Shown here in pieces: positions 11,381 to 57,100 of a DNA stretch of 64,000 nt (the stretch's first letter is position 1; each line of letters starts with the position of its first letter). The notes beneath the pieces were generated by a model. It saw only the letters and a program-made list of their open reading frames with translations. It was not told where the DNA came from and did no database searches. The position numbers were made by a program, and so were the translations under genes. Source of the stretch: Nemertoderma westbladi (lineage: Eukaryota; Animalia; Xenacoelomorpha); contig JAUCBJ010008515.1 in NCBI GenBank assembly GCA_032718475.1, positions 50,128-114,127 on the forward strand, read 5' to 3'.

Positions 11381-11384
11381 CATG

Positions 11385-21050: not shown

Positions 21051-21064
21051 AGTAGGAACTTATA

Positions 21065-24905: not shown

Positions 24906-27263
24906 TACTACTAATACTACTACTAGGATCGGCATGCTGCATTGCAGCTGCATTTTTGAGAATGCTGTGCTGGCTTTTTGACAAAATTGCGCCGCCACAA
25001 CTCCCTATCACACATGACATTTGCTCGATCATCCGCATCTTCAAGACCAGTGTCCTTTAATATGCGTCTCAATAAAGTCATGGGCTGTCCACCATTCTTA
25101 TTCACTCCATGAGGCTGCCAAAGTACAACATTATGCACTGGCTGGAAGACACAAATGTTGTCGAACCATCGTATACTGATCTGATTGCTGCAATAATTCC
25201 ATCAGGAATCCCATATAATGAAAGTATGCTGAACATACGTGAGCGAGAGACTGAATCAAAGGCCTTGAAGAAGTCAACAAAGATAACAGCCAGATATGCC
25301 TGTCTTTCTTTTTTGACAACTCTTCAATTATACTTCTAAGTGCCAAAATGGGCTCCATGGTCCCACGATCTTTACGGAACCCATTCTGATTTCCACGGAG
25401 CAGTCTCTCAATGGGATCCCTGATGCGATTTAATATAATTTTATTGTATAGCTTTGCAGCAATCGAGATCAATGAGATTCACCGAAAAGAACCATAGAGT
25501 GTTAGGTTGCCCTTCTTGGGAACTGGCACCAACTTATTTGTTTTCATTTCTTGCGGGACTCTTGTTGTTCGGTACATGTCTACTACAGTATGATGGGATA
25601 GATGAGCTTTAAACACTCAGGTATTTTAAAGACCTCAGGGGGAACACCATCTACTCCACTGGCACGATTGGTCTTAATGCTCTTTGCAGCAGCCTGCACT
25701 TCTGCAAAGGAGATATCGCCAATGGGAATATCTGGGAGTACAGACTCAGACACTTTTACTTCTACAAAGTTATCAGGCAATACCCTGTCATTATTGAGGA
25801 GCTTTTCAAAGTGGGCCTTCCAACCATTGAGGCGATCGGCTGGTGATTCAGCCTTAACCTTGGTGGTTGGTCGGCTTTTCCGCAAAGTAAGCAAGTTGAT
25901 CGATTTCCATGCCTGGGATGATTGCCTGCTGTCGTCAGCATCATTGATGGCATCAACCTGTTGGTTAATTAGCTCCTGTAGATTAACAGAGTACTGCCTG
26001 TTCAGGGACCTAGATGCAGACTTAACTGCATTCTTGGCTGCTGTAGTCTGTTTGAGTCGGGACTCTTTCGGCGCCTTGTAGAGGTCATTTCGGCACTTCT
26101 GGGTTTTGTTGTCAGTCCAGGGGGGCCCGTTTCCTGTTTCGAGGGTATACAGCAACTGTTTCTGCAGCTGCTAACTTAACTGCCTCTGTGAAGGCAGTAT
26201 AGCCCTCACAGTGATCTGCTGCCTCAGAGGCAAGAACCTCATACCTGTTGCTCAGCTGTAGTGTGAAGCTGGATCTCAGACTTGGCTGTTGCAACAGAGA
26301 GGACCAGTCATGCCGCGGCAAGGCAGATTTCGTTGTTCTGCTAGCACGCAGACTAAGTCTTACCTTGGCCACAATAAGGCGGTGATCACTGGAGAAGGGT
26401 CGAAGTGTAAATGCATTACAGTCTTGTATAGAGCTCCTGTACTTCCTACGAAACAGAATATGGTCTATCTGGGACTTGTGACCACTGGGTCCACTATGAG
26501 TCCATAGCTTTCCAGTTCGCTTCTTGAACTGGGTTCCAGCCGAAAACAATCCATTTCCAGAGATAAAATCCTGAAGATGGACGGAATTTCGGTTGACACT
26601 ATTGCTATAGACCCAGGGCGATGTAGGTGATTGATGCAGACTTGCATTAAAGTCTCCCAGGAATGTTAAGAATGCATGCTGATCCACTCCATCAGTAGCT
26701 GCTTGTAGATTGTGGTAGACATTTTCCACCTCCTCTACCGGGGCAACACTAGTTGGAGAGTAGCACACAATCAGAACTACCTTAGGAAACTTCTTAGCCA
26801 GTCTTCCAGAACATGAGAAGTGGCAACGGATCATGCGGTTAGAGATTTTGTCTATTTTGTCCAATGCTGCATGTGCAGTTGGATTCATCAATAGACCAAT
26901 ACCACCATTGCCACTATCATCTGCTGACGCGAGGGCGAGTCGCCAACCGCCCCCCATGTCCTTAATGAGAACCTCATCAGTCTGTCCAGTCTGCATTCGG
27001 TGCTCTTGAACACCCACTGCGCTAAGAGAAAGCTTATCTGCCAAGGCAGTCAGCTCACCTTGTCGCATTAGGGAGCCAAGTGTTAGGGTGTTTACTGAGG
27101 CTAGTCTAGTGACTTGCCTCAGATTCACCAATGGCTTTGTTGGTCGGGGTGGAACATGAGAGTAGCCTCCAACTCCAGAATCCCTCTCCCCCTCACAATC
27201 TGGCCCCCCTGGTGACCCGGGGTTTGGGCCAGAAAGGTCATCAGGAAAGGGACTCAAAGAATT
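24906..27263 (-). mobile_element. RTE-like LINE, 3' portion (APE endonuclease plus internally deleted RT)
   Basis: VGVQEHR, CYSPT, GDFNA, SQIDHIL, SDHRL, ASGVDG, NQNGFR. A (TAG)n-type tail lies at ~24906-24925. Confidence 0.9.
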
Positions 27264-28503
27264 TGTTCGCGCTTTCAGACCTTTAGCAGTTTAACCTGCC
27301 AAATTTGGATGTCTTCTAGATAATAAATCGACTTTAGCCTATGACGAGTATTTGATACACTACATTAGCCGAAGCCAGTCTATGCGCGACCATTCACCCG
27401 CTGGATATACCCGGGAGACTGGATTCGGAAGCCTAACCTTATTGCGGTGTAGGCCTACTGTATTATTCGACTGATCGTAATATATAATCTCTGACAAATA
27501 TTATTCACTTTCGGGAAATATTAACAGTTCCTTTAGGACGTGGCGCTCTAAATATGTAAACAGAGTTATGACTTAAACTAGACACAACGGGATGGCTATG
27601 GATTCAGGTATATAGCGCATTCTTTAGGAGATGATTTGTTATCAATCACAATCATACACACTACTGCACAATACTGCACACCGATCTGCCGACCTTCACT
27701 AATTTTAGTCACATATAAAGAGAACAACAACCGACTCATGTAGTGCCTATGAAATAGCATTAGATTCACTCCAAAACCACTTTAATGTAAGTCGCAATCA
27801 TTATATGTAACCGGTCTCTCTTACCTTCAGTATATCAAGAAGATTGAGGGTTTTGTAATTATTTATCGGTATTCCAAATATAATAATATCCCATCAACTG
27901 ATATAATGAATAACCGACAGTAAATAGCAGTACAAATGTTAAGGTATGAATGGTTATGATATGTTATGTTATGATAACAGATATACGTTCTATAATTAAG
28001 CCTACTAATGTAGGGCTAAAGTCTGAAACAACAGAGATTCCAAAGCCGGTCTTCTAGGCTCGGGAAAACCAACACAACTGATCCCTCTGGGCTGTTGTAG
28101 GGATCTTTCAACACAAAGAGAAACAGCTCTCATTGGCCGAGTTCCAGATTCTATAGGTTCCACGAATGTCTAAATGCCGAACTATTCGGGTTTTTGCAGC
28201 CCATATTCAACACAAGGCGAAATCGCTCTGATTGGTGGATCATTGTTCTGATTGGTTGAACAAGAACAAGTGATTGGACAGAACAAAGAGCCTATAGGCG
28301 TACAGCAAATCGGTTGGTAGATTGTGTCATTTGAGTTAGGTAGCTTAGAGTATTTGAGCGCATTGTGGGAAAACTGGCTTTTTATGTCCGCTAAAGCACA
28401 CATGCAGACACAGCGGATAAATCACTAGTTATGTCCTCTAAAAACACCTTACACAGTACATTGCGGAGAAAAGGGCCAGTTATATCCCGCAAAAGGTTTT
28501 ACA
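27264..28503 (-). repeat. BEL 3' LTR (~1.24 kb)
   Basis: Near-identical to 61124-62349. Purine tract GGGAGCGG (minus strand) abuts it at 28504-28511. Confidence 0.95.
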
Positions 28504-32248: not shown

Positions 32249-32254
32249 AGTATG

Positions 32255-32625
32255 AGTAGTAGATAAAGCATGGCCCCCAACAAAGTCCTCCCTAAGCCTG
32301 GGCTATGCACATTCCATTCGGAGGGCTATTAAAAAATGCCAAATTCCGGTGCTAAATTGCGGTGCGCGCCACATCTGTCACCACCATCCATCGATCGGCA
32401 GTTGCCATCAACCAATCGTAGCGTAGCGTAGCCTAACCTCACGGATGCCCGCCTTACTGACTGACTAACTAACTACTAACCCTAATGTTATTCACCTTTT
32501 CACCACGTCACCATCACCACCACCACCACCACCACCGCTGTATACTGTATATGATGGTGACAACGACGACGTGGCCACCAACTACTCGCATCGCGCATAT
32601 ATTATATTATATCGATTGCCAACTC
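32255..32625 (+). repeat. Polinton left TIR
   Basis: Reverse complement of 47879-48231. Outer ~180 bp match essentially exactly; inner part has indels. Confidence 0.95.
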
Positions 32626-33047
32626 CACGACAGCCGTCGCCAAACCAACAAACCAACCACTCAGTATGATACATGTGCATGAAATTCCGCCTCGTGTCAA
32701 CTACACGTATACGAGCATTTCCATAGTAGTTACTCAAGCTAACCGATCCCGCAGCATCTGGGCCATATTGAAAGGCTACTACTACTACTAACATTATACT
32801 GTGCGTTTTTATTATAATTATTGATTATTATTACACACAACCCTATGATTCATATTCTTTCACGTATTTCCTATCCACATTGCAACCCATCTCTTTTCTT
32901 ATTCGTCCATTATGCCACATCCCATCTCTTCTACGTTGACTATGCCACATCACGTATTCAGAAACTTATATAACTGAATGTTTTTATTTAAAATTCATCA
33001 CTTGTAATCTTCATGGTAATATATTGATAACATATCTAATTTTTTTT

Positions 33048-33416
33048 GTTCTCACTCTGAAATTGTGTTATTTCCTTAATAATTTCTACATTATCTTATT
33101 CGTTGTATATTCGTTGGTCGGAAAACGACACCTCATAAAATGATACTGATTCCAGCATTGGGTATCGACCTAAAAACGAAAATCTGAGCTACTATTTAAA
33201 CTATTTAACAAATCTTGATACTGACGGGGCTAAGGGTAGTTCTAATGTACGATCATGAATATCTTTGGGATATTTCAAATCGCAAATTAAGATCAAGATT
33301 TGTTAAATAGTTTATTAGTAGCTCAATTTTTGTTTTTTGGTCGATACCTAATGTCGAACTCAGCATCATTTTTCTTAGGTCTCGTCTTCCGACCAACACA
33401 ATTTTAAAGTGAGAAC
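33048..33416. repeat. Long imperfect palindrome (fold-back) in Polinton left non-coding arm
   Basis: GTTCTCAC/GTGAGAAC, GTTGGTCGGAA/TTCCGACCAAC and AAACTATTTAACAAATCTTGAT/ATCAAGATTTGTTAAATAGTTT pair symmetrically. Confidence 0.85.
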
Positions 33417-33489
33417 TATGGTGTCAATTTATTACAGCGATACGGTTTAAAATTTATCACTTGTAATATTTTTCGTATTTATTATTATT

Positions 33490-34553
33490 ATGGCCTTAAC
33501 GCAAAAAACCGGAGCAACAAATAGCTGGAAATTTACTTACAATAAATATACTTGTACCGTCGTTCACAGCAAGTATTTTATTGTGGAATCTCAGGAGGAC
33601 AACGAATCAATTTGTTTTTCCCATCAAGATACCCGCTATTTGTTAGACATTCTAGAAACAACCAACAACAACCAACATCAATCCAGACCAGCAATTATAC
33701 CAGGTAGGATATATCCAACTCTTCGTTTTGCGCGGGGAAATTTGAATATTTCCATCAACCCCACATCGGGTGATGTTTACGTTCAGAAACAAGGCAAATG
33801 TAAAGTTCTCAACAAAGCTTTTACTGAAGTTCTAATTCAATACAGAGGGAAATTATTGCAATTTCTCTCTCCACCGCTAGAGATTATTAGCGATCAATTC
33901 TACATTGAATTATCAAATCCAGAGTTTATTGGATTTGTAACAGCTTTTAAAGGAACCAACTATGTTGGCTTATGGAAAATCAGCCTCAGATACGCTGATA
34001 GTGTTGGTTTTAACTATTATACGGGTTTCAATTTGTCAAAACAGGAACTAACCGTTTTGTTGCGAGAGTGGGACAACCAAGTCGATGAAACAGACAAGCA
34101 TCTTTTTGATAAAAATATCATTCAATTATCAGACCGGCTCAAAATGATTAAAACCAATAATAAAAAAATTATTATCACCAACACCAATAATTCTACTGAA
34201 GTAGGTGCCGGCAGAAATTCTATTGAGTTGCATTACTTGAATGATAAAGCCCATATTAGTTTTCTCAAAGAATCGATGGATGGCGTTTCTCTTACATGTT
34301 ATATGTTGACGGTTTTGTCCTTTTGGATAAACCTAAAGCATTCGTAGAGATCCCATCACCTAATCCGGATGTTGAAGAGAGTTGCTCTCAACCGCAACAG
34401 GTCTTTCCTGAAATATTACCTCGGAAGCCAAGATCATCGAGTAAATTTACCAACGCATCACCTGCAAAGAAACAGAAAGTTGTCAGTAACCCAGTTCTAG
34501 TAGAGCCTGTTACTAATTCTCCATGGAAACCTGATTATTATCCTAATATGTAA
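33490..34553 (+). CDS. Polinton ORF with PC4-like ssDNA-binding repeat(s); frameshift near 34300
   Basis: FVTAFKGTNYVGLWK...TGFNLSKQELTVL resembles the PC4 consensus V..FKGK.Y.DIR...KGISL..EQW..L. NLS-like PAKKQK lies in the shifted tail. Confidence 0.5.
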
Positions 34554-34745
34554 ACCTAATCATAAGTTAAACTCTTTGCGGTTTCCAATAGTCATAAGCG
34601 ATTGGTGATTGGTTTAAAATTATTTCCCTCGCTAGCATATAAATGTTTAGATATAGTCAATATCATATCATTTCATTTTATTTTAATCTTTGGACATATT
34701 TTATTATTATTATTATTATTATTATTTATCTAAACAAACTTCAAA

Positions 34746-37700
34746 ATGGATAAAATAACAATATGTTGTTCATTCTGTCATATGAATGTAACTAGACATA
34801 ATTATTTACGCCACCTACGGTCACATTTTGAAGGTTATTCTTGTTTTAAGTGTCATGTCGTGACTTCATGCAGCAAAATTTGTAAACGACATGAATCAAC
34901 TACTGGTTGTAAAGAAATGGAGTTCCGCACCTATCAATTGACTTGTTCTACCTGTAATAAAGAGTATACATATGAGAATTATATACGACACGACTGTCAC
35001 TTGAAATGTTACTACACAAGAAAGCATAAATTTCCGCAACATAAAAATATAATATCCAGAAAAAACTTAAGGGTGGCTCTTGGTACATGCGCAACAATTT
35101 TTACGCGGGAACAAGAAGCTCACGATAATCGTCTTGAAATTTATGTCCACGACCTCCCAACTTCTAGAGATTATCCCGATGTAGAAACAGCATTAGCACA
35201 AATTCGAGGTAATATTCTTCAGTTAATATTAGATAGATTGAAAGAAATGAATGTTCTTAGACTGTGGTTAGGTCTAAATGTATTAATGTACAGATCACAT
35301 TTTTCAGAAGGCGAGCAATTGGAAACCTTTTATTTTAATTCTTCCGGTGGTGCTATTAATACTGTAGATTCACCGCAAAGTTTTGACACATGGTTTGAGT
35401 ATGTGCTGGGAAATATATTACAAAAAATAGCCATCTTTAACACACGTGGTTCGGGGTGGCGTATTAAATCTTTATTAAGGGTTGAAATTAAATTAGCTGA
35501 ATCTAAGTGTAGGTCATTACTATATAAGGGGCATGGATATATGGAATTACCTAAGGCTTTATCAGCTAAAAAATGTACAATAAATATACAAACAGCTGAT
35601 AATGATTGTTTCAAATGGGCTATTATATCCGCAAAATTTGGTAGCAAAGTGAAAAACAACAAAAACCATACTTCATTGTACAAAAATTATATGAGTCATT
35701 TCATTTTTGACAATGGGAACAAAGATTATCCAACAGAGTGGCAGTTAGCGATTAAACTTTTTGAAAAACAAAATTCAAAATATATAATTAATTTACTATG
35801 TTGGAATAACGACAACAAACACACTCCTGTATCTATATTAAGACAACCTCCGTTTAGTAAAATTACACCTGATAAACAGTTATTAAATATATTACTTGTA
35901 GTAAAAAATAACAATGTACCTAAACTGAATCATTATGTTTGCATAACTAACTTGAATCGATTGCTGAATACGAGAGCTCTTCATACTCGAGGTAGGCAAT
36001 TTTGTGAAAGGTGCTTGGCTCATTTTTTTCGAGCGGAAGTTCTTCATCGACACCGTCTCGTATGCTACCAAGGAAGAAGTCAGCGCGAGAAACTACCTAA
36101 TAAAAAAAGAACACACATTAGTTTTACAAATTTAGATAGAACCTTATCCCCATTGTTTGTCACCTACTTTGATATAGAATGTATCTTACAACCTTCAGTT
36201 AATAATCAATTTATACAGGAGCATATACCGTGTGCTGTGAGTTATTTAATTGTTCCCAATACTGAATTAATTGACCCACCAAAATGTCATTTGAAAACAT
36301 TTGTAAAGACAAATAATAATAATAATTGTATTCAAGATTTCTTAGATTCATTATATACTGATTTAACTGAATTATGTTGTTGGTCAGACATATACACTCA
36401 TAAAACCATGTCATTTACTAATATTGATTTTGTAAATTTTGAACAAGCAAAATTCTGTTTCTATTGTAATGTTACTTTAAATAATAATGTTGGGAAAAAC
36501 AGACATCATTCACATATTACAGGTAAATATATTGCGGCAGCCTGTAATAGTTGTAACCGAAGTTTATCATTGAAACGATACCTGTATGTACTTTGCGGGC
36601 ACAATTCCAACAACTACGATATACATTGTATATTACAAACCGGATTTAAAGATAAGAAATACACAGATTGGGATATAAAGGTTATACCGAGAAATACAGA
36701 ACGATATATTTCACTGAGTGCATTTATCCCAATTAAAAACACTTCTAAAAAAATTGAGTTACGTTTCTTGGACACATATCAATTTTTAAGCTTTTCTTTA
36801 AGTAATTTAGTTGAGTGTTCAACAAAGGATGTAGCGAGTCATGATATAAGCTCAATTTTACCTATTACTCTACAAGAAATGAAATATTTTTATCCAAACT
36901 TGAATAACTCAACAATTAAACGGAAAGGAGTATTTCCATACGAGTACTTGACAGATATTAATAAATTTAATGATACTAGTTTACCATCTATAAATAATTT
37001 TTTTAGTAACTTAAGTCAAAAAACATGTACAATTGAAGATTATAGGTTTGCGGAATTATCATGGGTTGAATTCGACTGTGTGAATCTCAAAGATTATCTT
37101 TTAGCCTATTTAAAACTCGATGTTTGTTTGCTTGCTGATATATTTGAGAATTTTAGGAATGTTTGTAAACAAAATTACGATTTAGAAGTGGTTTTTTACT
37201 GTAGTATCGCGTCATTTACCTATGATTGCGCACTAAAATATAATAAATGTAAAATATAATTAATAAAGGATTATCAGACATATAGAGATTTTGAAAAATC
37301 AATTAGGGGTGGTGTTTCATTTTGTCGAAAGCATTATATAGAATCAAATATGCCAGGAACAAGTATATATGATTCTACTAAGGAAGAATGCCATATTTTT
37401 AATATTGATTTCAACTCTTTATATTCAGGGAATTTAAGTAAAAAACTACCCACCTCGCAATTCAAAGAAGTAAGTAGTAAACATTTAGAGAATGCAATTC
37501 CAGAAAAACTAATCGAGTACTTGGTAGATTTAGACATTGATGGATCTACTGGATATTTTTTAATATGTGATTTAAATTATCCTAAAGCTATTCACGATGA
37601 AACATTACAATTACCGTTAGCCCCAGAGCATTTAAGTATAAATGAATCAATGCTTTCACCTTATATGAGGGAACAATTTAATAATTTATCGATACAAAGA

Positions 37701-38807
37701 GGTACCTCCCGTAAATATAGGATGTCTACACCAAAACTCTTGCTGACGCAATTTGATAAAGAGTTTTATCATTTACATTTGAAACTGTTAAAATTTTATA
37801 TAAAACATGGATTAATTGTTACTAAACTACATAAATTATATTCTTTTCAACAAGAATTTGTATTTAAACCCTACATAGATTTTAATATTAATCAAAGGCG
37901 CCTAGCAAAAAGTTACATTGAAACTGCTGTCGCGAAATTGCTCAATAATTCACTGTTTGGCAAATCAATAGAAAAGATAAGAGATCGATGTAACTTTCGT
38001 ATCGCAAATAGCAACGATAAATGCGATCAATTGGTAAATCGTATTAATCATGAACAATTTATAATATACAATAATACATTATCGGGACATTTATTAGTGA
38101 AAGACTCTGTAACTCTCGATAAGCCTATATTTATTGGTAGCGCTGTGTTGGACTTGGCTAAATTGGATATGTATGAGCTGTTTTACAATAAATTGCTACC
38201 TATTGAGAAAGAATTAAATTGTAGTATTGAAATTGCTGCATCAGACACTGACTCTTTAATAGGTTGTTATTATAATACATCACAGAATAATTTTTTAAAA
38301 GCATTAATTAAAAATAATATTTTAGATACTTCCAATTACCCTAAGGATCACCCTCTTTACAGTGATAAAAATAAATCCCAACTCTATTACTGTAAAGACG
38401 AGCTAGCCTCACGTGAAATTAAACAAGCAGTATTTTTAAGACCAAAATTATATTCAATTTTGGAATGGAATAACAAAAATATTCGTAGAGCAAAAGGTAT
38501 TACAAGAGCTGTTGTGGAAACGAATATTACACATGAAGAATATTTAAAAGCATATAACTCAAATGAAGAAATAAAAAAAAACATACACAGATTTCAATCT
38601 AAATTACATCGTATTTATACCTTAAAGCAAAATAAATTTGCACTCAGTAGCTTTGACGATAAACTTTATTGGGTTAATAAAAATCATTCGCTTCCTTGGG
38701 GGCACTATAAAACAAACCTCAAAAAAACTATAAAAATATCAAATATACCAATTTATGAAGAACCAAAAGACGACAGTGTTGATGATGAATTATCAAATAG
38801 TAAATAA
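34746..38807 (+). pseudogene. Protein-primed DNA polymerase B with one in-frame TAA at 37257-37259
   Basis: N-terminal zinc fingers, GSGW, YFDIE, HNSNNYD, RFLDTYQF, KGVFPYEY, SIRGG (just past the stop), DFNSLY, KLLNNSLFGKS, DTDS. Both ORFs are in the same frame. Confidence 0.95.
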
Positions 38808-39305
38808 AAATATAAGTTGCCAGCAAGTGTTCAATTATCTGGTAAACACATACTCAAACCAAATCAGTTTATATATAAGATATTTGGTGCTACATTATTA
38901 ATATTTAAAAATGGTCGTATTACATTATTAGGCAGTAAGTATAATTTCCAAAAAGTAAAAAAGCATATATTTGATAAAACTAGTATTAATTTGATTTTAA
39001 AATCTGTTAATTTATGTACTTATATTTTTAGTATTAAGTCTGTAGTCTATAGGTTATTGATAAACAATACCGGGTTTTATGTTGTCTTTGATAATGTGCA
39101 ACTTCAAGTTATATATGAACCTGAAATATTCAATAACTGTAAAGTCAGAATAAATAATAATGTTGTTGTTTGCTGCTTCTACACCGGTAAATGTACATTA
39201 ATGTGTTCCCTGTTTAAATTTCATATATATTACCCTATATTCAACAAACTGGTTAATAATTTATTATTGTTTGGTGCGAGGGTTTTTGTTGTAAAATATA
39301 ATTAG
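38782..39305 (+). CDS. TATA-binding-protein-like ORF of the Polinton (likely frameshift near 5' end)
   Basis: Two TBP-like repeats: ATLLIFKNGRITLLGSK and YEPEIFNN...CCFYTGKCTLM. An out-of-frame ATG at 38782 gives MMNYQIVNKNISC. Confidence 0.7.
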
Positions 39306-39669
39306 TGTGAGTGAAATTTATTGTTGTTGTTGCTGTTTGGTGGTGGAGATTTTTACTGTAAAATATATATATATTAAATTGGTTGGAAAAAAATTATGAA
39401 TATTTTTTTTTTTTTTTAAATCAACAACTAGTTTGAGGGGAAATTAACTTCGGTAGAGCGATTGCTGCTTGTAACACACAAGTAGGCATAGTATACTCAG
39501 GGGCTGTAGCTAGCTAGCTAACTTGGCATTGTTGCTCACGAGTGAGTTACAATAGCGCATCTGTTACTTATGAGTGTGCGTGAGTGCGGCGGGCAACGCT
39601 AAGCTCGGTGAGAAAAGATTAGGGCTATGTGCTGGTATTCATAGTCAAAGACGATGCCCTCCTATCTGT

Positions 39670-40144
39670 TACTAGTCTGTATACCGGTACATATCATTAA
39701 AACATCGGCTATGCATCTCCCTACATTCAGAATAGAACAACGAACAGAGCATATATCGCTAATCCGCCTGGGAAAGGTTTATGTTGTGCATTTTGTTAAC
39801 TATGAGAATTTTGTAAGTTGGGAAACTAATATTGCCCGTTTCAGCAACCCAAATACATGTATATTTTTTTTATATTTTAAATGTCTCTTCATATATTTTT
39901 TAAAGTCATCTTGCGAAATGTCACCGTAGTCCCAGGGCAAATGAGAAGTCATGTCTCATAAATTGTTTACGTGAGCTACATCTAAAGCTGATAACTTAAT
40001 ATTAGGTGGGCCTTTAATTAAAAACATCTTTACATTAGTTTTGGTGTAATTAGAATCGAATATAGCAAATTCTTTAAATACTACCGGATACTCTTTATTG
40101 TCTATCTTATAATATTGAAAATCAACAAAAATAATATTATCCAT
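39670..40144 (-). pseudogene. DEDD/DnaQ-fold small Polinton protein, interrupted
   Basis: IFVDFQ...VFKEFAI...FLIKGPP, in-frame TGA, then SHLPWDYGDI...IHVFGLLK. Confidence 0.5.
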
Positions 40145-40175
40145 TTTATCTGATAAACAAAAGCTAAATGATTAA

Positions 40176-40631
40176 TTACAACGCTTGTTGGTTTATTTTA
40201 TAATAATTAACAAGCCATTTATATAATATTATTTCATTTATTTCCACATTATTTGTAAACGCACTCATTGGATAGTTTGTGTGAATTCGATTTACCAAAT
40301 AATAAAGACAGTATAGACCGCATGTGGTCCGCCTAGGGTCTTGAAATTGTTTGTGAGTAGTACGCCATCTTGCGGAATTTTTCACAAGCCATTTTTCGAT
40401 GCATCTGTTTGGATATTTTGATCCGAATGAATCAAATAATTCAGCCTCATTATCTCGTATATATATTGCGATCCAATGAATCCCGGGCAGATGCTCTTTA
40501 TCGGTATTTACTATTAACCCATAATCTCTTCGCTTATTATTATTATCTAATTTAGGTAATTTATTAGCTGGAAACGCTCCCAAATAGTGACCACCCACTG
40601 GAAACATATCAAGGTCCTCTGTAGATAACAT
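40176..40631 (-). CDS. Adenain-like cysteine protease
   Basis: IVNTD..PGIHWIAI, FDSFG, Q....TCGLYC catalytic His/Asp/Cys pattern. Confidence 0.95.
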   Translation of the reverse strand: MLSTEDLDMFPVGGHYLGAFPANKLPKLDNNNKRRDYGLIVNTDKEHLPGIHWIAIYIRDNEAELFDSFGSKYPNRCIEKWLVKNSARWRTTHKQFQDPRRTTCGLYCLYYLVNRIHTNYPMSAFTNNVEINEIILYKWLVNYYKINQQAL

Positions 40632-40633
40632 AC

Positions 40634-41893
40634 TTAATCGATATGTATTTCTTTCCTGCTATTTAAACTTAATGATTGATCATAAATATTAAAAATGATT
40701 ACATTTATGGTTTCAACCAACGGTTCGGCAAATCTTAATTTTAATTGGCCGTTAGTATATATCGACGGTTGCGGATCTCTAACATAGCTGTCGGCGGTTA
40801 AGTCCCAGGATAGGATGGGGCAATTACCTAAGTAGGTTTCATGGTCTATATTATTACCTCCATAACCGTTAATATATGTATTAATGTTCTTCATTAATTG
40901 AGTATACTCAAAAATATATGTTCCATCTGTAAAATTAGGCTCGTATATTACACCAACTACTGGAAGACCGTCTACAATCGGTTCCGCGCGTCTAAGGTTA
41001 AAATGTTCAAATTTCAAGGGATTGCTAATTAATTCTCCTGAATAAGCGTTATTTGTTATGAAGCCGATAATAACTAATTTGGGTTTTTTACCATCAAATA
41101 TGTTTGTTTGGGTGTAATTTGTGGTTTGAGCGGGAATAGTAAATGTTGTAACCTCCTTTTTTTGGAATTGATATTCAATATCGTAACTCTCTAAACCTTT
41201 TAGGTGACTGCTTTCTATTACCGGATTAACCTCCATTCTAGGGATTAGGATCTTTATTTCATCTAATTCTAGCCGAAGATTTGTCACCGCGTTTGCGTTT
41301 GGAGTGATTTTAAAAATAAACGAATTTGATACTTTTCTAAAATGCATTCTTAAATCATACCCGGGTTGTATTATTTTGCTTTCAGTATCAAAATCAATCG
41401 TCAATCCACTTACAAATTGCATTTGTTTACTAAAGGCATCGCCAATAGGATGCGCGCCGGGATCAATTTCATTTCCGTGCTCAGATAAAGGCTGATGAAA
41501 GCCACCCACACCCAGTAGCCCATTTTTATCCTCGTAAGTTGTAAATAATAAATTGGATAAGTACGACTTGTAGAAATAATGGTTATTGCTATTTTCAACC
41601 TGCTTCTCATTAAGGTCTATTTTAATATCACTCCACATAGTTTCAGCGGGGTAATTCAGCATATATATATGGGAATTGTCAAGTCATCTATCCCACCGTA
41701 CAGTACATTTTGTAATTAATAACGCATCTTGCAGTTTTGTATAGAATTCATTGGATCTCGGTACAAGGAACGTGACTTCCCTAGACTCACTTCTGAGATT
41801 AGATACGGGGTAAATTGTTTCATAATGCTTTGCTTTAAATTCAGTCTGTATTGGCTGTATAGAAAATAAATCTAATTCCTTAATAATTGACAT
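40634..41893 (-). pseudogene. Major capsid protein (double jelly-roll) with one in-frame TGA at 41684-41686
   Basis: ELDLFSIQPIQT N-terminus, PKLVIIGF, NPLKFEHFNL, WDLTAD, LKLRFAEPL. About 420 codons once read through. Confidence 0.88.
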
Positions 41894-41895
41894 TA

Positions 41896-42456
41896 TTAAA
41901 AAATACTTTTTTCGCAGTGTTTCAGTTTGCCTTTTATATTTCTCTTTTTACTACGTCGATGATGTATGTTCATAGACATTGGTCTAGCGGGTCGCTTTAA
42001 ATCTCTATAAACTTTTTCTACAACTGACCTTGTTGACGGTTTCATTTTATTTAATGCTTTATTAATAACCGTATTAGCCTGCTGATGTAAGACCCGCTTA
42101 CCTTTTGGTATTACGTGTTGTCTCATAAATTTTGTGGTAAATGGTAAAGCTTTTTGTAAAACTTTTTTAGCTAATGGCTTACCAAATTTTTTCAATGTCG
42201 ATAAAGCGTCTGTAAATATACCTTCTCCGTGTTGATTTGTCCTCATACCTCTAGGATAACGCTGAAAACGATGTTGTTTTAAGTTTGGACCAAATGCGCC
42301 AATTTGTTGACCGTAAGGGTCAATATATGAACCACCTCGAAAAACAGGAACTTGCGTCGAGCCTCTCGTACTTCTACCACCTTTAAAAACAGCAAGATTC
42401 GAGTCAGCACTACCATATTGAGGTTTACTGTATCTTTGAAATAAATCAGAATCCAT
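41896..42456 (-). CDS. Basic core/membrane-active virion protein candidate
   Basis: Repeated VF(K/R)GG and QHGEG putative protease sites, then an amphipathic IFTDALSTLKKFGKPLAKK helix and Arg/Lys-rich tail. Confidence 0.65.
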   Translation of the reverse strand: MDSDLFQRYSKPQYGSADSNLAVFKGGRSTRGSTQVPVFRGGSYIDPYGQQIGAFGPNLKQHRFQRYPRGMRTNQHGEGIFTDALSTLKKFGKPLAKKVLQKALPFTTKFMRQHVIPKGKRVLHQQANTVINKALNKMKPSTRSVVEKVYRDLKRPARPMSMNIHHRRSKKRNIKGKLKHCEKSIF

Positions 42457-42459
42457 TTT

Positions 42460-42740
42460 AATTTATTCGTTTAAAGTGTAATGTAATAGATGTTGTCCCG
42501 TATTCAAAATTCAAATCTTTTCCTTCTTTGTCTGTTATTTCAATATGAATGTATGTTATACATGGACGGCAACGTTGCTAAGTAAAATATACTTTTTATA
42601 CCTACCACCCAGTTTTCGTTTGGATTTATAGGTAAGGCGCCGTGGAAATTTATCTGATAATTACTAGCGCTATTGCGGGGAAAATCAATTGGACATGAGT
42701 TACTTGGTAGTCTTACGTAGAATTCATCCATCACTGCCAC
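42460..42740 (-). pseudogene. Second minor capsid (penton-like) gene, internally deleted
   Basis: N-terminal FYVRLPSNS..FPRNSASNY..WVVGIKSI joins, in another frame, C-terminal IEITDKEGKDLNFEYGTTSITLHFKR. Confidence 0.7.
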
Positions 42741-43631
42741 CCCGTATTAACTTAAGTGTTATAACAGTGCGACCTCCGCTAAAATTAATTAATTCGCCTT
42801 GTCCGTCACGTAAAGTAATTAAGATTGTTTTTAGTTTTTTATTAAACAACGGGTAATAGCAAATGCTCTCGTATTCGTGATTAATATATTTTCGATTTAA
42901 TTGCGTTAAAGGGCAGGTTCTTAAGAGCGGAGCTAAAGCGTCACCAACAAATGAGCTCTTAATAATATCTGTATATATAAAGATAGTGTCTTTATTACGT
43001 GTTATATTCGTGGGAGCTGGAAAATCTAAAATGCCAATTTCCGAAATTTTTGGTCCGCTATAATTTAAAATTAATATCGGCTGTTCTATATTGCTTAATT
43101 CATCTACTGTAGTGGTACTGTATATATCCCAATTCGGAATACCTGGATGATTCCGATCCAATAACGGTTTTAAGCCTAGAATTTGTATTAAATCACCACG
43201 TAGACTTAATTGTATTTTTTTCAACTTTTTAGGAAATTTAAATTTAATTCTAGAATTATTTGTATTAAAAATGAATTCGAAATCTCTATATTTCGCTTCA
43301 GAATTAAACAGTTTATTTATATCATCAATAATCACTTGAATAGAGCTATGCATACCAGGAAATAAACTATATAATTTGGCATCTTTTGCATCTACCCCGA
43401 TTGACAGCGAGATTTGAGTTTGCAGTGTAATATTACTGTATGTTGCTTGGTATTGTAGCTTGGCAAGCCCAATTTTAGCGTTTGGACCAATATATAATTC
43501 TTCGGCTAAATCAACAGTAAACTCACTAGGATTATTATTGGGGTAAGTGTTTAATGAGCTATCTGAAAGATATATGTATCTGTGGCCATTATTATTATTA
43601 TTATTTAAGCTCTCTCTCTACTTGACTCCAT
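42724..43631 (-). pseudogene. Minor capsid (penton-like) protein; frameshift in (AG)n near start
   Basis: Frame is open upstream of 43353 (YLSDSSLNTYPNNNPSEFTVDL). Contains IFIYTDII..SFVGD..APLLR and ITLRDGQG..INF.GG..VITL. Confidence 0.85.
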
Positions 43632-43845
43632 TGTACATACAGTACAGTACAGTATAATGTTAAATTATAGACATCTGTGACCACGTTCATTGTCGCATCT
43701 TCTACAGTATATGCGCGGGATCAATATTTTATTGGCTTTATTTAAAACGGATGAACTATAGATATAGTAATATCATTTGAGTTAATATTGATTAATTACG
43801 GTCATATGCGACCAAAATGAATTAATATACAGTATAAACCTAAGC

Positions 43846-44934
43846 TTATTGAATATGCTGTACCCACGACTGTTTCTTGGATCCAATGAATCGGACTAAA
43901 TATTCTTTCTTCCCATTGCGTACACGTTCTTTAAGTTTGCCAATATTTTTGTCAATTGGTAGATAAATATTACTATTCGGGTGGACCTTTTGGAGTTCGT
44001 GAGAATAAAATGAGCCATTTATTATAGCTCCAGCGCTGTCCTTAATATCGAACATTACCACAGGTACTCTATCCAACCTGACACGATGAATAATAAATAA
44101 TTCACGTGTCCATTGTTCTTGATAGCCTTTAGCAAAAGCAGTACGAGCGATAGATAATCGTACTGTATCTCCAACTTTAAATTTTATTTTCTTATGATTA
44201 ATCTGTCTATATTTCCCATATAATCTATTCATTAATTCAGTTTCATTAAATTTATTAACTTCAATGGGAGTCATTTATATTGTCCTATGATATGACCTAT
44301 TATAAGCATAAATGAGCTTTGGTAAAATTTTAATCCAAACATTATTTCCTCGTTGCGTAAAAATTTTGAACATCTTTGTTTTTAATGTTCTATTGAATCT
44401 CTCGACAATAGCCGCCTTATTCACAGAATACATTACGTAATACTGTATACGTAACGTTTCTAAATATTTTCTTACAGATTTATTTAGAAACTCAGACCCT
44501 TGATCAGTCGCGATTCTGTTTGGTTTTCCTTTCTGGAATATTTTTTGCAATATACTAATAATTTCAATACCCTTTTTTGTTTTCATAGCATAGGCAAAAG
44601 CAAGCCTGCTAAAGGCATCAATACATGTTAATATATAGTTATAATTATTATTTTGCGATTTATATTGCTGCATATCCACCAGATCTATCATATATATATC
44701 TTTTAAACCTCCCGTAAATATTTTAGATGTTGGATAATGATGTCTACGTGGAGCGTGAAGGGTGTATGTCTTTTGCCCGCTCAACCATTTCTGGGCTTGT
44801 GCTGGTTTGATGTTTGCAGCTTTTGCTAATTTTGCAACACTTGCAAAACCCGCGGGGGATGATGGATCTAAATAAATTCTTAACAGTTTTTTGTCTAAGC
44901 TTCGGCTTAAAATCGGTTTCATCTTGCGAGGCAT
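43846..44934 (-). pseudogene. Retroviral-like integrase with C-terminal chromo-like region; one in-frame TAA at 44275-44277
   Basis: IDLVDM, CIDAFSR, TDQGSEF, VERFNRTLK, HRTI*MTP, FKVGDTVR, EYLVRFIG..SWV. Confidence 0.95.
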
Positions 44935-45158
44935 CTTTTCGACAACCGCAAGTAATATGTATATTCAAATCTCTTATAAAGGGCATCACCGTAAGAACAA
45001 CTGAAATTTTTTAATTATTTTCTTTGAAGTTGATGTTTTAAAGGGTTTTCTTTTTGTAGTATTTACTCTAGGTATATCTTGTGGTTTTAAATCAGTAGCT
45101 AACGGTTTACTCGATACTAAATATAATTTTCTAAATGTTACTCCTGTTTTAACCATTA

Positions 45159-45543
45159 TTACCGTCCGCAGTTAATTTTTTTCGCAATAGCTGCTCCAGC
45201 AGCGGCGGCACCGGCACTCGCGGCGAGTTTCGCACCAATGCCGAGTAAGGGTATTAGAAACGGTAGTATACCTCCAGATTGATTGCTTAACTTTTTTCAT
45301 GTAACTTGATATATTTTTTGTTTTACGGTTGAGTGATTTCAATACCTTCTTAGAGCGGCGAATATTTCTAAATGAATGAGGGGTTAATTGTACGTTACCT
45401 TTTAGAACATTTAATGCAGTATTTACAATGAGCCGTATTAATTCGTTACTCGCGGTATGGTTAATAAAATAAGTTCTTTGTTGAGGGGTAGCGCTGCGTA
45501 GAAATTCCAGTTCGTTACGATATTTCTGCACAAGTCTATTCAT
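45159..45543 (-). pseudogene. Adenovirus pX(mu)-like core precursor; A-run frameshift near 45295
   Basis: ALNVLKGNV.L motif. The shifted frame reads NQSGGILPFLIPLLGIGAKLAASAG. Confidence 0.75.
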
Positions 45544-45580
45544 TGTTGCAACATTATTGAAAATTGTTACAAAATATTAA

Positions 45581-46261
45581 TTATTTATCATTATTATTAT
45601 TATTATTTTCGCTACGTTTATAGTCAATGTAATTTTTAATGTAACAATTATGATTACGAAATATATCCGATCTAAATCTTAAATGTTCGGGTGTTTCCTG
45701 TCGTAAATCAATTAAGAAATGCGAAAATGGTTCAATAGTTGCATCTTGATAGGAATCAACTAAAAATTTGGTCTGCCCTGGTAACATCTGCTTCGCGAAA
45801 TTTAAAACCGATAAACTGTCTCGCGGATTTTTCATTAATACTAAAGTATGGCTATTAATTGATCTTGTGCGGTTATGCTTCCCACCGTAAAACATGTTTT
45901 GCGTTATAAAACAAATAAATATATTGGAATGATGAGCTACCTTAGTAAACAATACAGTTAAAGCTGTACTGGACTCAGTTTCTGTTAATAAATCATCTAT
46001 AATTAATAAATCTCGACTATTCACTAAACTATCTATATTTTCAGGCAAACCTTTGTAAAGGTGAGTAATACCGGGAATAGTCGGGGGATTGCTCCCGTAA
46101 CAATGCAATACTCGCAAGGGGGCTTCGTTGAAACAACCATTCTTGTGTTTAATTAAATTACTGACAAATGTTGACTTTCCAGAACCAGATGGCCCAGAAA
46201 TTATCATACTCGTTCCCATTTGAAAGTTTAAATTATATGGACCTGAATTAAAGTCAGCCAT
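45581..46261 (-). CDS. A32-like genome packaging ATPase
   Basis: Walker A GPSGSGKS, Walker B LLIIDD, ITQNMF, KNPRD. Confidence 0.95.
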   Translation of the reverse strand: MADFNSGPYNLNFQMGTSMIISGPSGSGKSTFVSNLIKHKNGCFNEAPLRVLHCYGSNPPTIPGITHLYKGLPENIDSLVNSRDLLIIDDLLTETESSTALTVLFTKVAHHSNIFICFITQNMFYGGKHNRTRSINSHTLVLMKNPRDSLSVLNFAKQMLPGQTKFLVDSYQDATIEPFSHFLIDLRQETPEHLRFRSDIFRNHNCYIKNYIDYKRSENNNNNNDK

Positions 46262-46477
46262 TTATTATTATTATTAAGATATATCAACAATACAATATAA
46301 TATAATATAAATATCAATATCAATAAACCATCACCATTACTATGTATATAACAATAATTGAGGCAACTACAATATTAGAGTACTGTATATTTAATTAACA
46401 TATGACACAACTACAGTATGTGACGCTCGCTGCAACAAAAGGTGCTATTTCCAATTATAGTATAGACTGATGTAATT

Positions 46478-46930
46478 TCAAGCATGGTGAGCATCTTTAT
46501 ACGCGAAATAATGATAGGTAACATCGGCGGTTTGGAAATCACTTCCCGAGAATTTCGCACTAATGATTTTTTTATGTTCGCTGCTAAAAAAATAAGGAAT
46601 ATAGTAGCAACACCGTCGTACTACATTTCTATAAAAAATATTCTCCAATATTGTAAATAAATCTCCCGGATCATTACTTTCCGCAGAAATATAAGTTATA
46701 TTTCGAAGCTCTTTCCAATAATAGGGTTGATAAATTGCCAACTTTATATTAAACTTAGATATGGGTGCGCGACAAATAGGACAAATTTTAGAACAATAAT
46801 TATTCATTTCGGAATATTGTACAATACATTGTACGCAAGTTGCATGTTTATTTTCACATTTATAATAATCTCGATGTTGTTGCAATAACTTAGAATAGCA
46901 AACTGGACATTTTTCATTTAAAATATCCAT
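46478..46930 (-). CDS. RING-finger protein (putative E3 ligase)
   Basis: CPVC...C..KH..CVQC...CPICR, a C3HC4-like pattern. Confidence 0.8.
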   Translation of the reverse strand: MDILNEKCPVCYSKLLQQHRDYYKCENKHATCVQCIVQYSEMNNYCSKICPICRAPISKFNIKLAIYQPYYWKELRNITYISAESNDPGDLFTILENIFYRNVVRRCCYYIPYFFSSEHKKIISAKFSGSDFQTADVTYHYFAYKDAHHA

Positions 46931-47099
46931 TTTTCCAAATTTTAAAGTAAATTGAACATAATTACCTCAATACACAACAACAACAACAACAAACAAATCT
47001 GTTATACTGTATATACAATTACTACTACAATTTTCGATTATTTAAAAACATTAAAATTTTATAAATAATCATAAAATATTTATAATATAGAGGGAAAAG

Positions 47100-47543
47100 T
47101 CAAGAATCAATGATATTATCAACATATTCAACATTATCTGTTGATTCTTCAGGTTCGATAAAGGATTCTTTTGAAATCATTACAATAAAGAAAGACATAA
47201 TTTCGTAGAGGCTATGCCGATTTAGCCGTATTTCAAACTTTTCACCAGCTTCGTTGTATTGTGTAATAACAATAAACCCCTCTATCATGGATAATAGTAA
47301 GATGTTGATTAATTTTCCCACATGCTCAACTTTCAGGTTGTAATCTAAGAGATGAATACTATTATCAGAAGCATCAATATCAATTGAGCTTAAAACTTTC
47401 CTGGCTTTTTCAGAAAACTCAATTTTATATTTATCATCTCCCTGACGGTAAATTGTATAATCAATAACAATATAGGCTTGACCATCTTCTGCAAAAAATG
47501 AATGCCTTACTATTGGCATAACCATATCGGAATCAGAAGACAT
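47100..47543 (-). CDS. Hypothetical acidic Polinton protein
   Basis: Intact 147 aa ATG ORF co-oriented with the right-arm genes. No motif recognised. Confidence 0.6.
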   Translation of the reverse strand: MSSDSDMVMPIVRHSFFAEDGQAYIVIDYTIYRQGDDKYKIEFSEKARKVLSSIDIDASDNSIHLLDYNLKVEHVGKLINILLLSMIEGFIVITQYNEAGEKFEIRLNRHSLYEIMSFFIVMISKESFIEPEESTDNVEYVDNIIDS

Positions 47544-47878
47544 TATTTAATTTATTTTATTGTAAATCAAACAAACAAAGTAAAAACTTTTAAACTAAAA
47601 CCATTACAAATGATTAATTGTGATTAAAGCAAGAGATTATATATATAAGATATTTTCGAAAATAATACAGGTCTTAAACTGAGAAATAGCCTAAATTCGG
47701 ATTATTGATTGGTTGATTAGCTGGTAGGGAAATGCAGTTTAAACAAAAATTATTGCGTAATAATAATCACTAATGCTTGTATACGCGTAGCTGGAACGGA
47801 ATGGAATTTCATGTATCATACTAGGAGGTTGGTGACAGCCGTCGAGGAGTAGCGCTAGCTAGCGGGGGCTAAATCGTT

Positions 47879-48231
47879 GAGTTGGCAATCGATATAATAT
47901 AATATAATATCGAGGGTATATGCGTGTAGTTGGTGGCCACGTCGTCGTTGTTGTCATCATATACAGTATACAGCAGTGGTGGTGGTGGTGATGATGTGGC
48001 GAAAAGGTGAATAACATTAGGGTTAGTAGTTAGTTAGTCAGTAGTCGAGTTAGGCTACGCTACGCTACGATTGGTTGATGGCAACTGCCGATCGATGGAT
48101 GGTGGTGACAGATGTGGCGCGCACCGCAATTTAGCACCGGAATTTGGCATTTTTTAATAGCCCTCCGAATGGAATGTGCATAGCCCAGGCTTAGGGAGGA
48201 CTTTGTTGGGGGCCATGCTTTATCTACTACT
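47879..48231 (-). repeat. Polinton right TIR
   Basis: Reverse complement of 32255-32625. Confidence 0.95.
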
Positions 48232-48237
48232 AGTATG

Positions 48238-54105: not shown

Positions 54106-57100
54106 TGTGGGCGTATCTACTATTGCTGCGAGGCAGCAGACGAATAAAACCTTTGTCTGGAGCAGATACTATCAGATAGATATGTATAATAGGGTCCTCC
54201 AGGGACCGGTCACGGCATGTAGTAAGTAGCCTAATAACAGAATATGTACTGCCGTACTCTGACTAACACCGACATACAGACTGTCCAACACCGGTAGGTC
54301 TCTCCCCTCTCGTCCCAGGATATCCGTGGGGCGAGCCATATATTATCACCACACCCCCTTACGAGCTCGGATTAGCCGTCTAAGGCTGTGCCGAGCTATC
54401 AACAGTTCTGTCCTACAGTCTGTCGGGTGGCTGACGCGTCCGTTTTGGATACCTCGAAACTGAAAGTTTATCGGAGGTCTGAGTTTCCACTAGGGGTTCA
54501 CGCCAGCGCAGTTTCTTGGTGGGTGTGGGTCCCGTTGGGGCCGCGTCCGGTGGCGGAGGGCCCGTTGGTGTCGCCTGGTGGGCGGTGTCCGGGATTAGGA
54601 AGCGTCGGTTCCGGACAAGGGTGCGTCCGGACGGCATCCGGACTGTATACTTCCGGTGGGAACCAGTCTCTACGACGGTTCCAGCGCGATCCCATCGCTT
54701 GGTGGTAGGGTGTTGAACCCTTACCCGGGCGCCTACCATGAGAGGTACCAAATCTTTGGCGCCGCGGTTGTACTGGGTGGTCCGGGCCGATTTGATGGCT
54801 GGCGCCACCCGGTCTAGCTGCATCCGGGTCTCTTGTATAGTCCGGGCGAAGGCGGTGTGGTGAGCTGGGACACGCGTCCGCATTGGGTGTCCGAAGACAA
54901 TGTCCACTGGGGAAGAGCCGCTCTCCCTGGGGCTGTTGCGGAGTTCCAGGTGCCCCTCCAGGAACACTTCGGACGTAGTAGGGCCCCCGGTCTTTACCAG
55001 AAGGCTCTTCAGGGCCTTTACCGCCGACTCGGCGTGCCCGTTACTCTGGGGGTATTCCGGTGACGACGTGACCGGTGTGACCCCCCATTCCTTCAGGAAT
55101 TTCGTCGTCGCTGCCGCAGTGAAAGGGGTCCCGCCATCCGAGCGAAAGCGGGTCGGCACCCCGTACCGGATGAACCAGTCTCGCAGGGCGGTGATTGTCC
55201 GGTCGGCAGTAGGTGGGGCGGAAAACGAGTACACTTCCAGCCATCCGGAATATCGGTCGGCGGCGGCCAGGAAGTGCTTCGCCCCAAGGGAGAAGAAGTC
55301 CCCCGAAACGTCCTCGAAGGGTCGAGTGGGTGGAGGTTCCGACTGGAATGACTCCTTTGTCTGGCTCGATCAGCCGGTCAGACATTCGCTGCAAGCGCCC
55401 ACGGTCGTCCGGACATCGTTAGTTATGCCCGGCCAGTAGACACACTGCCGGGCACGTCGTAGCGTCTTCTCCACCCCCTGGTGCGAGGCGTGGAGGCGCG
55501 TAAGGGTAGATTTCCGCGACGCTGTGGGGACCACAATGCGATGGCCCAGCAGGGCCAGGTCCCCGTCCGTGGTTAACTGGTCCCGGACAGACCAGAAGAT
55601 GTTCACCGCTGGGTTCGTCCGGGTGGATTCCGGAAACCCAGCCTCGATAGCCGCGAGTAGGGCTTTGTAGTCCGGATCGTCCCGAGCCAGTCGGGCGAGT
55701 ACATCGAGGACTGGATCCGTGAGGTGGGCGGAATCGGAGCCGGTTATGTCGGCGGTGGTCTGGTGGGTGACGGCCCGGATGTACGTCGCCATTTCGCCGT
55801 CGTCCACGATGTCATCCGGTGTCGGGTCGTTGACGGGGGCGCGGGACAAAGCGTCGGCTATGGCGTGGTCCTTCCCCTTTGTCCATGTGGTGGTAAACTG
55901 GTAGGGAGCCAGTTTCGTTTTGAGCCGCTGGAGGCGCGTGTTGTCGGTCGCGTCCACCGTGTACTTGTCGATGATCGTCACCAACGGCTGGTGGTCAACG
56001 ATTAGGTTGAAGTGTGGGAGGCCGAGAAGGTACATACGGCACTTCTGCACTGCCCATACGACGGCGAGCAGCTCGAGTTCTACCATGGCATACCGGGACT
56101 CGGTCTCGGTGGTGAACCTCGAGCCGCACTCGACCAGCTTCCAGTCCTCCCCGTGAAGTTGGAGGAGGGCGTAGCCGAGGCCCTTCAGCCGGGACGCGTC
56201 TGTCACTAGGCGGGTCTCCCGGGTCATGTCGAACGGGACGAGGGCCGGCGGTGACGTCAGAGCCAGCTTGGTGGCCTCGAAGGCCCGTTCGTGGTCCACC
56301 GTCCAGATGAAGGTCGCCTTCGTGCTTAGGAGGGGACGTAGCGGGGACATCGCGGCAGCGATGTCTGCTGAGAACGGAGCGAGTTGCTCCACCAGTCCGA
56401 GGAAGCTCCGGAGATCGGTGATGTTCCCAGGGCGGGGGAAGCCGGCGATCGCCTTCAGTTTCTCAGGGTCGGCTTTTATCCCGGAGGCGCCGACGAGGTA
56501 CCCAGCGAACCGAACTTCGGTCTGGGCATACTGAACCTTCCCCGGGTGTAACTTGATCCCGTAGGTCCGGCACCGCTCCATAAACCTCGCGATGTTCTCC
56601 ATGTGCTCCTCCATCATATCGTCGTAGAGGAGTACATCGTCTACGACCTTGATGAGGTTAGGAAGTCCCTGGATGGCGTCGTCGCCTCGACGGTTAAACT
56701 CGTCGCCGGACAAGATCAGCCCCATCACACTACGAGTGTGACAGTACCGGCCCCAGGGAGTCGCGAAGGTGGTGAGGAGTTGGGATTCCTCGTCGAGGGG
56801 AACCTGCCAGTAGCCACTGGCGGCATCGAACACGGAGAAAATCTTTGCAGTCGTGGAGACTCCGGCGACTGCGGTCTGTGGATTCGGCGTTGGGTAATAG
56901 GGGCGTTGGACCTGCGAGTTTAGGTGGCGGAGGTCCACGCAGAGTCGCAGTCCTCCGTTGGGTTTAGGCGCCACCGTCATCGGATGGGCCCATTCCGTAG
57001 GTTCCTCGACCCGGGTGATGACTTCCCGTCGCTCTAGCTTGTCGAGGAGTTCTTTCACCTCGTCCCGCATCGCGAACGGGACAGGTCGCGCGCCGTTGAC

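Follow-up and report, generated by a model that had tools for sequence, protein, structure and literature searches.

A Polinton located within the window, by which the whole analysed stretch of 64,000 nucleotides is meant, carries a gene for a divergent TATA-binding protein (TBP) directly behind its gene for a protein-primed family B DNA polymerase (pPolB). This TBP-like gene is real, constrained and part of the Polinton family, and it is broken in the window's copy. Its open reading frame (ORF) extends from stop to stop over positions 38808-39305 of the plus strand (165 aa), with no ATG in its first two thirds, and is confirmed as a divergent TBP by sequence and profile comparison. A TBP label on the map of a Polinton-like virus was already known; new here is the constrained TBP-like gene in a probably animal Polinton family.

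The Polinton comprises 15,977 bases (window 32255-48231), and both terminal inverted repeats and the 6-bp target duplication are present. A 6-bp target duplication and AGT-type ends are hallmarks of Polintons. The terminal repeats are 100% complementary over 183 nt (32255-32437 versus 48049-48231) and extend over approximately 380 nt at 88% overall. The element is inserted into a retrotransposon-like gene that encodes a DUF1759 domain; we take this gene to be of the BEL/Pao type. The following features were assigned to the element and its borders:

32249-32254, 6-bp target-site duplication, with an identical right copy at 48232-48237; the two flank both ends of the element
32255-32630, plus strand, left terminal inverted repeat, starting with AGTAGT
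33490-34347, plus strand, 285-aa ORF upstream of pPolB, PC4-like by eye
34746-38807, plus strand, pPolB, with an in-frame stop at 37257-37259
38706-38736, plus strand, two TATA-like words within the coding end of pPolB, at 76 and 53 bases upstream of the ATG of the TBP-like gene; not above chance
38782-38819, plus strand, start and first strand (MMNYQIVN) of the TBP-like gene, overlapping the pPolB end
38808-39305, plus strand, TBP-like ORF with two lobes, directly behind pPolB on the plus arm
38820-38850, plus strand, frame-breaking base loss in the window's copy; sister contigs differ and are longer here
39956-40144, minus strand, start region of a broken gene, MAEL/DEDD-exonuclease-like by eye
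40176-40631, minus strand, adenain-type cysteine protease (Pfam PF00770, E 9.5e-6)
40634-41893, minus strand, probable major capsid protein, with an in-frame stop at 41684-41686; resembles a 471-aa ORF of the viral contig L055 (E 5e-20)
41896-42456, minus strand, basic protein at the gene position of a virion core (pX-like) protein, labelled by position only
42724-43589, minus strand, probable minor capsid (penton) protein; resembles an L055 ORF (E 7e-16)
43846-44934, minus strand, retroviral-type integrase (Pfam rve, E 2e-11), with an in-frame stop at 44275-44277
45581-46261, minus strand, packaging ATPase (A32/FtsK-like, P-loop); weak Pfam Pox_A32 match (E 0.001), L055 relative at E 4e-34
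46478-46930, minus strand, RING-finger-like protein; sub-threshold Pfam RING matches
47874-48231, minus strand, right terminal inverted repeat

The plus arm contains the 285-aa ORF, pPolB and the TBP-like gene, and the convergent minus arm the integrase, ATPase, protease, RING-like and probable capsid genes. An earlier sequence-only reading of this DNA had placed the gene in a Polinton, and the context is as it stated: terminal repeats, target duplication, pPolB, rve integrase and adenain protease were all found, as was the packaging ATPase. Inverted repeats, 6-bp duplication, pPolB, integrase, ATPase, protease and probable capsid genes are shared with Polintons/Mavericks (adintoviruses) in general, whereas the TBP-like gene is an extra one, not found in 29 related loci. 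For pPolB, 207 relatives were obtained at E<=1e-20, many of them with PF03175; the few named ones are from sponge, spider, mayfly, mussel and moth, and judged by these the host of the Polinton family is probably an animal. Polintons have a double-jelly-roll major and a single-jelly-roll minor capsid protein. The probable major capsid protein gave no match to a named family or a PDB entry in Pfam and PDB searches; both probable capsid genes are known here from their likeness to L055, where the counterparts occupy the same place. The integrase counterpart in L055 is a single 343-aa ORF.

The window's element represents one damaged member of a family. Sister contigs of all four sequencing runs used are without the in-frame stop in pPolB, and the capsid and integrase genes of this copy also contain in-frame stops; single gene breaks may be assembly errors. 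At least four core genes are broken in an element whose inverted repeats match fully over their outer 183 nt and whose target duplication has stayed intact, a combination which could reflect either a defective copy mobilised by other copies or errors of the assembly. Several further remnants were observed. A 551-base fragment at 21063-21613 comes from another Polinton integrase gene and shares 91% identity with that of the element, and an imperfect 285-base inverted repeat lies inside the left end (33113-33397), part of it resembling a short pPolB stretch on the minus strand. On the minus strand, the broken gene at 39700-40144 resembles by eye the MAEL-type exonuclease label of adintoviruses, with no Pfam match; a second, shorter penton-like gene, also labelled by eye and broken in this copy, is situated behind the first (42460-42727); and the end of a broken gene at 45172-45543, for which the Pfam scan was blank, is by eye like 'Cupiennin', a class named for the virion modules of Beta-type adintoviruses (PMC8502044). 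The window is repeat-rich, with two LTR-type retroelement pol genes and the endonuclease of a LINE-like element at 8884-11421, 26112-27290 and 54413-58273.

The homology of the ORF to TBP was assessed by several routes. It matched the Pfam TBP family PF00352 at E 5.2e-7 with 29.9 bits (cut-off 22.9) and scored 28.9 bits on a profile of 120 TBP-family proteins that had been built without it; on the same profile, 2000 shuffles reached at most 7.5 bits and the reversed sequence -2.1 bits, and among 1116 segments from a six-frame translation of the window the runner-up to the ORF had 5.9 bits. HHalign against TBP gave 96.2% (E 2e-9). In the ESM Atlas, 29 of 30 matches were TBP clusters (top score 0.95), at a recognition score of 1980, which is below the Atlas's mark of 2300. 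A direct phmmer search against the PDB was weak (best entry 1mp9, E 0.1), the HMMER search of 1.84 billion representatives returned one match, a short TBP on a 1-kb contig (P0001, E 3e-4), and a word-indexed search scored none of its 13 candidates. The two TBP-type half-repeats on which the sequence-only reading had based its claim both lie in the ORF and align to both TBP lobes, and the claimed homology is borne out by the Pfam match above cut-off, HHalign, the independent profile and the Atlas. Structure prediction adds little on whether the protein has a full saddle fold, since the model was steered by the TBP alignment and is without first strand and helix. A single-sequence fold of the broken-copy ORF reached pLDDT 38 with no PDB match; the model from an alignment with 119 TBPs, incomplete and of the broken copy, had two cores at pLDDT about 70 (whole 58.8, pTM 0.42). 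With Foldseek, the 40 matches of this model at E<=0.001 were all listed as TBPs (E 4e-5 to 9e-4, TM 0.27-0.35), and giant-virus TBP-like proteins were among its matches in BFVD; in VIA-align, TBP reached Z 6.1 over 145 residues, level with unrelated folds.

The start of the gene and the frame break were analysed with sister contigs from four sequencing runs, representing three samples at most; the stretch itself is present in five runs. Over 591 bases around the TBP-like gene, the runs yielded 453, 305, 122 and 6 contigs. Some single contigs have a depth above 10,000 and others of about 30, a contrast that suggests a large Polinton family and gives no copy number; depth drops at 38820-38839. 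An ATG ATG in overlap with the end of pPolB (38782-38787) starts the peptide MMNYQIVN in a frame other than that of the ORF. Sister contigs match the window up to 38819 and again from 38831-38851, those of runs X3 and X4 from 38851. Their intervening part is longer, the excess not being divisible by three, and the ATG frame there consequently continues into the TBP ORF. The window's copy has therefore lost bases at 38820-38850. The suggestion that a TBP-like first strand (YQIVN) lies one frameshift away was right, the shift being a base loss in the window's copy and the sister contigs being without the break, and the proposed synteny check agrees, as the same contigs link the pPolB end to the TBP-like gene. 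Addition of the upstream peptide changed the local profile score from 28.9 to 28.3 bits (controls 28.1 and 28.8); as no score was gained, the evidence for the first strand comes only from the sister contigs and from the residue in the N69 column described below. Two other explanations of the gene's start were rejected. A read-through fusion, the ORF being in frame behind the pPolB stop, is contradicted by sister contigs that show no listed difference at the stop and by their extra bases, which place the ORF in the ATG frame; the latter also speaks against a short intron at the break.

Selection on the gene was estimated from differences pooled from short sister contigs, each site being classed alone and not in a whole-copy codon model. 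Forty of 44 differing sites were listed, 38 of them within the TBP-like ORF. Of the latter, 27 are at third positions (p 2e-6); 21 are synonymous, 17 non-synonymous and none a stop, with pN/pS at 0.21-0.31 depending on the assumed transition ratio. Read in the other two plus-strand frames, the same differences give 6 and 4 synonymous changes and 3 and 6 stops. When five sites at which nearly all contigs of run X1 differ from the window were left out, 24 of 33 remained at third positions (p 4e-6). The conserved cores hold 9 synonymous versus 3 non-synonymous differences, and 14 non-synonymous ones lie outside. No listed sister difference changes a residue of YEPEIFNN, those at the NN position being synonymous, and the sole listed indels fall behind the stop of the ORF. 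A gap-free relative of 212 nt with 35 differences was found in a run labelled as another organism. The comparison of sister copies that had been proposed as a check on constraint hence indicates purifying selection, by third-position bias, absence of stops and pN/pS.

Residues are given in yeast TBP numbering, transferred via the protein P0007, which is colinear with yeast TBP at an offset of 56. Kept are F99, F116, F190, F207, L114, G119, G125, Y185, E186, P187, E188, G210 and K211. These include the four phenylalanines (codons starting at 38868, 38904, 39129 and 39177) whose positions are described as DNA-intercalating in yeast TBP numbering (PMC12529657), and the glutamates E186 and E188 of the YEPEIF motif (codons 39117 and 39123), which correspond to the two C-lobe contacts to TFIIB/Brf (PMC7221094). 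The glycines of both LIFxxG turns are likewise retained. The nearby DNA-reading positions are changed: V122, V213, L205, T124, T215, P191 and G192 are replaced and G216 is also lost, with N-N at the P191-G192 position, where 119 and 112 of 120 relatives, respectively, have P191 and G192. The N69 column holds N, supplied by the upstream frame, while the N159 column is ambiguous, as one alignment places S there and another N and an SVN motif is a third candidate, the mid-protein alignment being uncertain. Due to the loss of P191, G192 and G216 and the ambiguity at N159, the protein may bind DNA differently or not at all. It is strongly basic (22 K+R versus 4 D+E).

Relatives of the gene were sought in both directions. 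TBP was found in none of 29 pPolB-related viral loci, 26 of which include at least 800 bases behind pPolB, and Polintons thus do not need a TBP. Conversely, no Polinton core gene was found near the TBP matches in 49 metagenome loci and 15 viral loci obtained with TBP alignments, and scans of viral contigs with P0001, with pPolB alone and with an alignment of P0001-3 returned nothing. The nearest matches, P0001, P0002 and P0003, are TBPs of 171-175 aa with no N-terminal extension, which form their own group (SH-aLRT 82) and may be mobile-element TBPs; their contigs are only 1-1.7 kb long and have no gene context. In a quick tree of 78 rows (67 of the 120 TBP-family proteins after thinning, 10 viral proteins and the query, with no animal TBP or TRF2), the TBP-like protein was unplaced on a branch of 4.58 changes per column.

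Promoter words and candidate partner proteins were searched in the element. The idea that the protein redirects transcription to the capsid-arm promoters received no direct support from the motif search upstream of those genes, which gave no shared word: in this one decayed copy, degenerate 7-9-mers were sought ahead of 10 capsid-arm genes, and the best ones were equalled by 111 to 185 of 200 shuffles. The word TATAA precedes 9 of 12 minus-arm genes at -36 to -104 (p 0.018, one of 7 patterns and not significant once all 7 are counted), and stricter TATA patterns were at chance level. A canonical TATAAAAG is present 45 bases upstream of the ATG of the probable major capsid gene (40634-41893, minus strand). 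As a separate observation, the 16 kb of the element contain 21 sites of the word TACWGTA and the remaining 48 kb of the window 18; clusters lie ahead of the ATPase gene and of the penton gene, and each terminal repeat has one. When the element's 85 ORFs of at least 45 aa were compared with Pfam, none matched a TFIIB or polymerase-subunit family; Pfam also missed pPolB and the probable capsid protein of the same element, so that a divergent TFIIB could be missed. A PC4 identity of the ORF at 33490-34347, in which repeated PC4-type units were noticed by eye, was not adopted, as database support was absent. A weak Pfam PC4 match was obtained for L055:11373-11885 on the minus strand (E 0.003), and alignment of its product with the 285-aa ORF covered 106 aa at 21% identity (E 0.94).

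Compared with cellular TBP (PF00352; yeast 1ytb/1rm1, human 1cdw, archaeal 1mp9), which bends the TATA box on binding it and nucleates the pre-initiation complex, the Polinton protein has in common the two lobes, the four phenylalanines, the LIFxxGK-type strands and the C-lobe YEPE loop. It differs in being only about 20-30% identical, in having no N-terminal extension, in the loss of P191, G192 and G216, in its changed DNA-facing residues and shortened first-lobe loop, and in being borne on a mobile element.

Many Nucleocytoviricota possess a polymerase of their own. The Polinton TBP belongs among the viral TBP-like factors, a well-known class, and is not a new category. Factors resembling TBP are widespread among the larger DNA viruses (Ravarani et al. 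2020, PMC7221094). Those of Nucleocytoviricota (ASFV B263R-like, mimivirus-like) are, as here, virus-borne and divergent with the key phenylalanines kept. Nearly every virus with a TBP also encodes a TFIIB, and the C-lobe glutamates are poorly kept in viral TBPs, the first at about 40% (PMC7221094). Nucleocytoviricota thus mostly combine their own TFIIB with diverged glutamates, whereas the Polinton protein keeps the glutamates and its element gave no TFIIB or polymerase match. One tested viral TBP mimic is KSHV ORF24, of the beta/gamma-herpesvirus type, which needs its four phenylalanines and uses the TBP fold with host Pol II (PMC12529657). The four phenylalanines and a more polar DNA face are common to both proteins, with polar residues at V122, L205 and V213 in ORF24 (Table 1 of PMC12529657) as in the Polinton protein. 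However, ORF24 has 752 aa, binds Pol II via its own N-terminal domain and DNA via a C-terminal one, is without the TFIIB glutamates and reads TATTWAA (PMC12529657), whereas the Polinton protein has fewer than 200 aa, keeps the glutamates and has lost a proline that ORF24 keeps, and no shared promoter word was found for it. TBPs have also been described in mirusvirus-like elements (PMC10675990).

The closest precedent is a TBP-labelled gene on the map of MELD viruses with an adintovirus-like PolB (Starrett et al. 2021, PMC8502044, Fig. 5 legend; bioRxiv 10.1101/697771), where the TBP-like gene likewise belongs to a Polinton-like element of middle size that has this kind of polymerase. In the available part of that paper the label is confined to figure legends where non-animal datasets are treated, without analysis, whereas the present gene is integrated, multi-copy and from a probably animal family with constraint shown. 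TBP is absent among the legible labels of the animal adintovirus maps (PMC8502044, Fig. S2, in part). Term searches for TBP or TATA found no mention in PMC10748475 or 10.64898/2026.06.19.733378 and a mention within a reference only in PMC12220804. Our search found no literature on TBP in animal Polintons, Mavericks or adintoviruses; Repbase and most subscription papers were outside it, and the supplement of PMC8502044, seen in part, could hold an animal example.

The reading preferred here, to which we give even chances, is that of a small, fast-evolving TBP which is encoded behind pPolB, likely attaches to AT-rich element promoters, bends them and would recruit host TFIIB and RNA polymerase II. 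The protein would be made from the pPolB arm; its altered DNA face would shift its sequence preference, and when bound to element promoters it would, through the kept glutamates, recruit host TFIIB and then the polymerase. Once made, it would activate the convergently oriented arm with the capsid and integrase genes, without a need for TFIID. The homology, the gene's place, the constraint and the kept and changed residues are observed, and what is inferred from them is that the protein binds DNA, that its sequence preference has shifted, that it works with host TFIIB and that it acts as an arm switch. A stronger version, which we regard as possible but somewhat doubtful, is that a single TBP of less than 200 aa with a rewired DNA face plugs into host TFIIB directly, bypassing TFIID and its regulators and needing no TFIIB or polymerase of its own, and would be the smallest known late-gene switch, here of a 16-kb integrating animal element.

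Four other readings were weighed against this one. The protein might be a decoy that keeps the TFIIB loop, reads DNA poorly and soaks up host TFIIB/Brf or TBP regulators, thereby damping host transcription or silencing. YEPEIF is indeed the best-kept motif, the positions P191, G192, L205, V122, V213, T124 and T215 differ and no promoter word was found, but all four DNA-intercalating phenylalanines are kept and the strong basicity would be superfluous in a pure protein decoy, and we consider this reading unlikely. A slightly lower probability is given to a promoter factor with another partner, either an undetected TFIIB-like protein or coactivator of the element (e.g. the 285-aa or 147-aa ORFs) or host Brf with Pol III. 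Such a partner would be in line with the usual pairing of viral TBPs with their own TFIIB and with the contact of the same glutamates to Brf1/2 (PMC7221094), and two element ORFs are without assignment; against it stand the 85 ORFs with no TFIIB-family match, the protein-coding nature of the element genes and the basic N-lobe helix, also gripped by Brf1, which is too divergent to align. Less probable again is a role in bending DNA for replication or packaging, e.g. at the termini, instead of one in transcription: the gene overlaps the pPolB end on the replication arm, and TBP-type lobes also occur in non-transcription roles, in RNase HIII and others, but the glutamates that contact the TFIIB family are kept and vary only synonymously, and pPolB manages without TBP in the 29 related loci. 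That the gene is a captured fragment of a host TBP drifting without function is very improbable and largely refuted by the constraint among sister copies, since the broken state of the window's copy and of several of its other genes and the very long branch are outweighed by the third-position bias, the lack of stops and of any listed frame-breaking indel inside the ORF, and the gap-free 212-nt relative under another organism label.

The significance of a promoter-binding TBP that uses host TFIIB is tempered by the fact that viral TBP-like proteins are well known, that a label exists on a Polinton-like map and that the mechanism is a proposal only. If true, the arrangement would be the opposite both of herpesvirus TBP mimics, which drop TFIIB, and of giant viruses, which bring their own, and the Polinton life cycle would become testable via one gene. 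A natural minimal TBP with a kept TFIIB loop and a changed DNA face would help to define the requirements of a basal factor. The TBP-like gene may moreover serve as a marker of when and where this Polinton family is active, and the constrained, element-encoded TBP is a concrete candidate for the switch of the capsid genes of animal Polintons.
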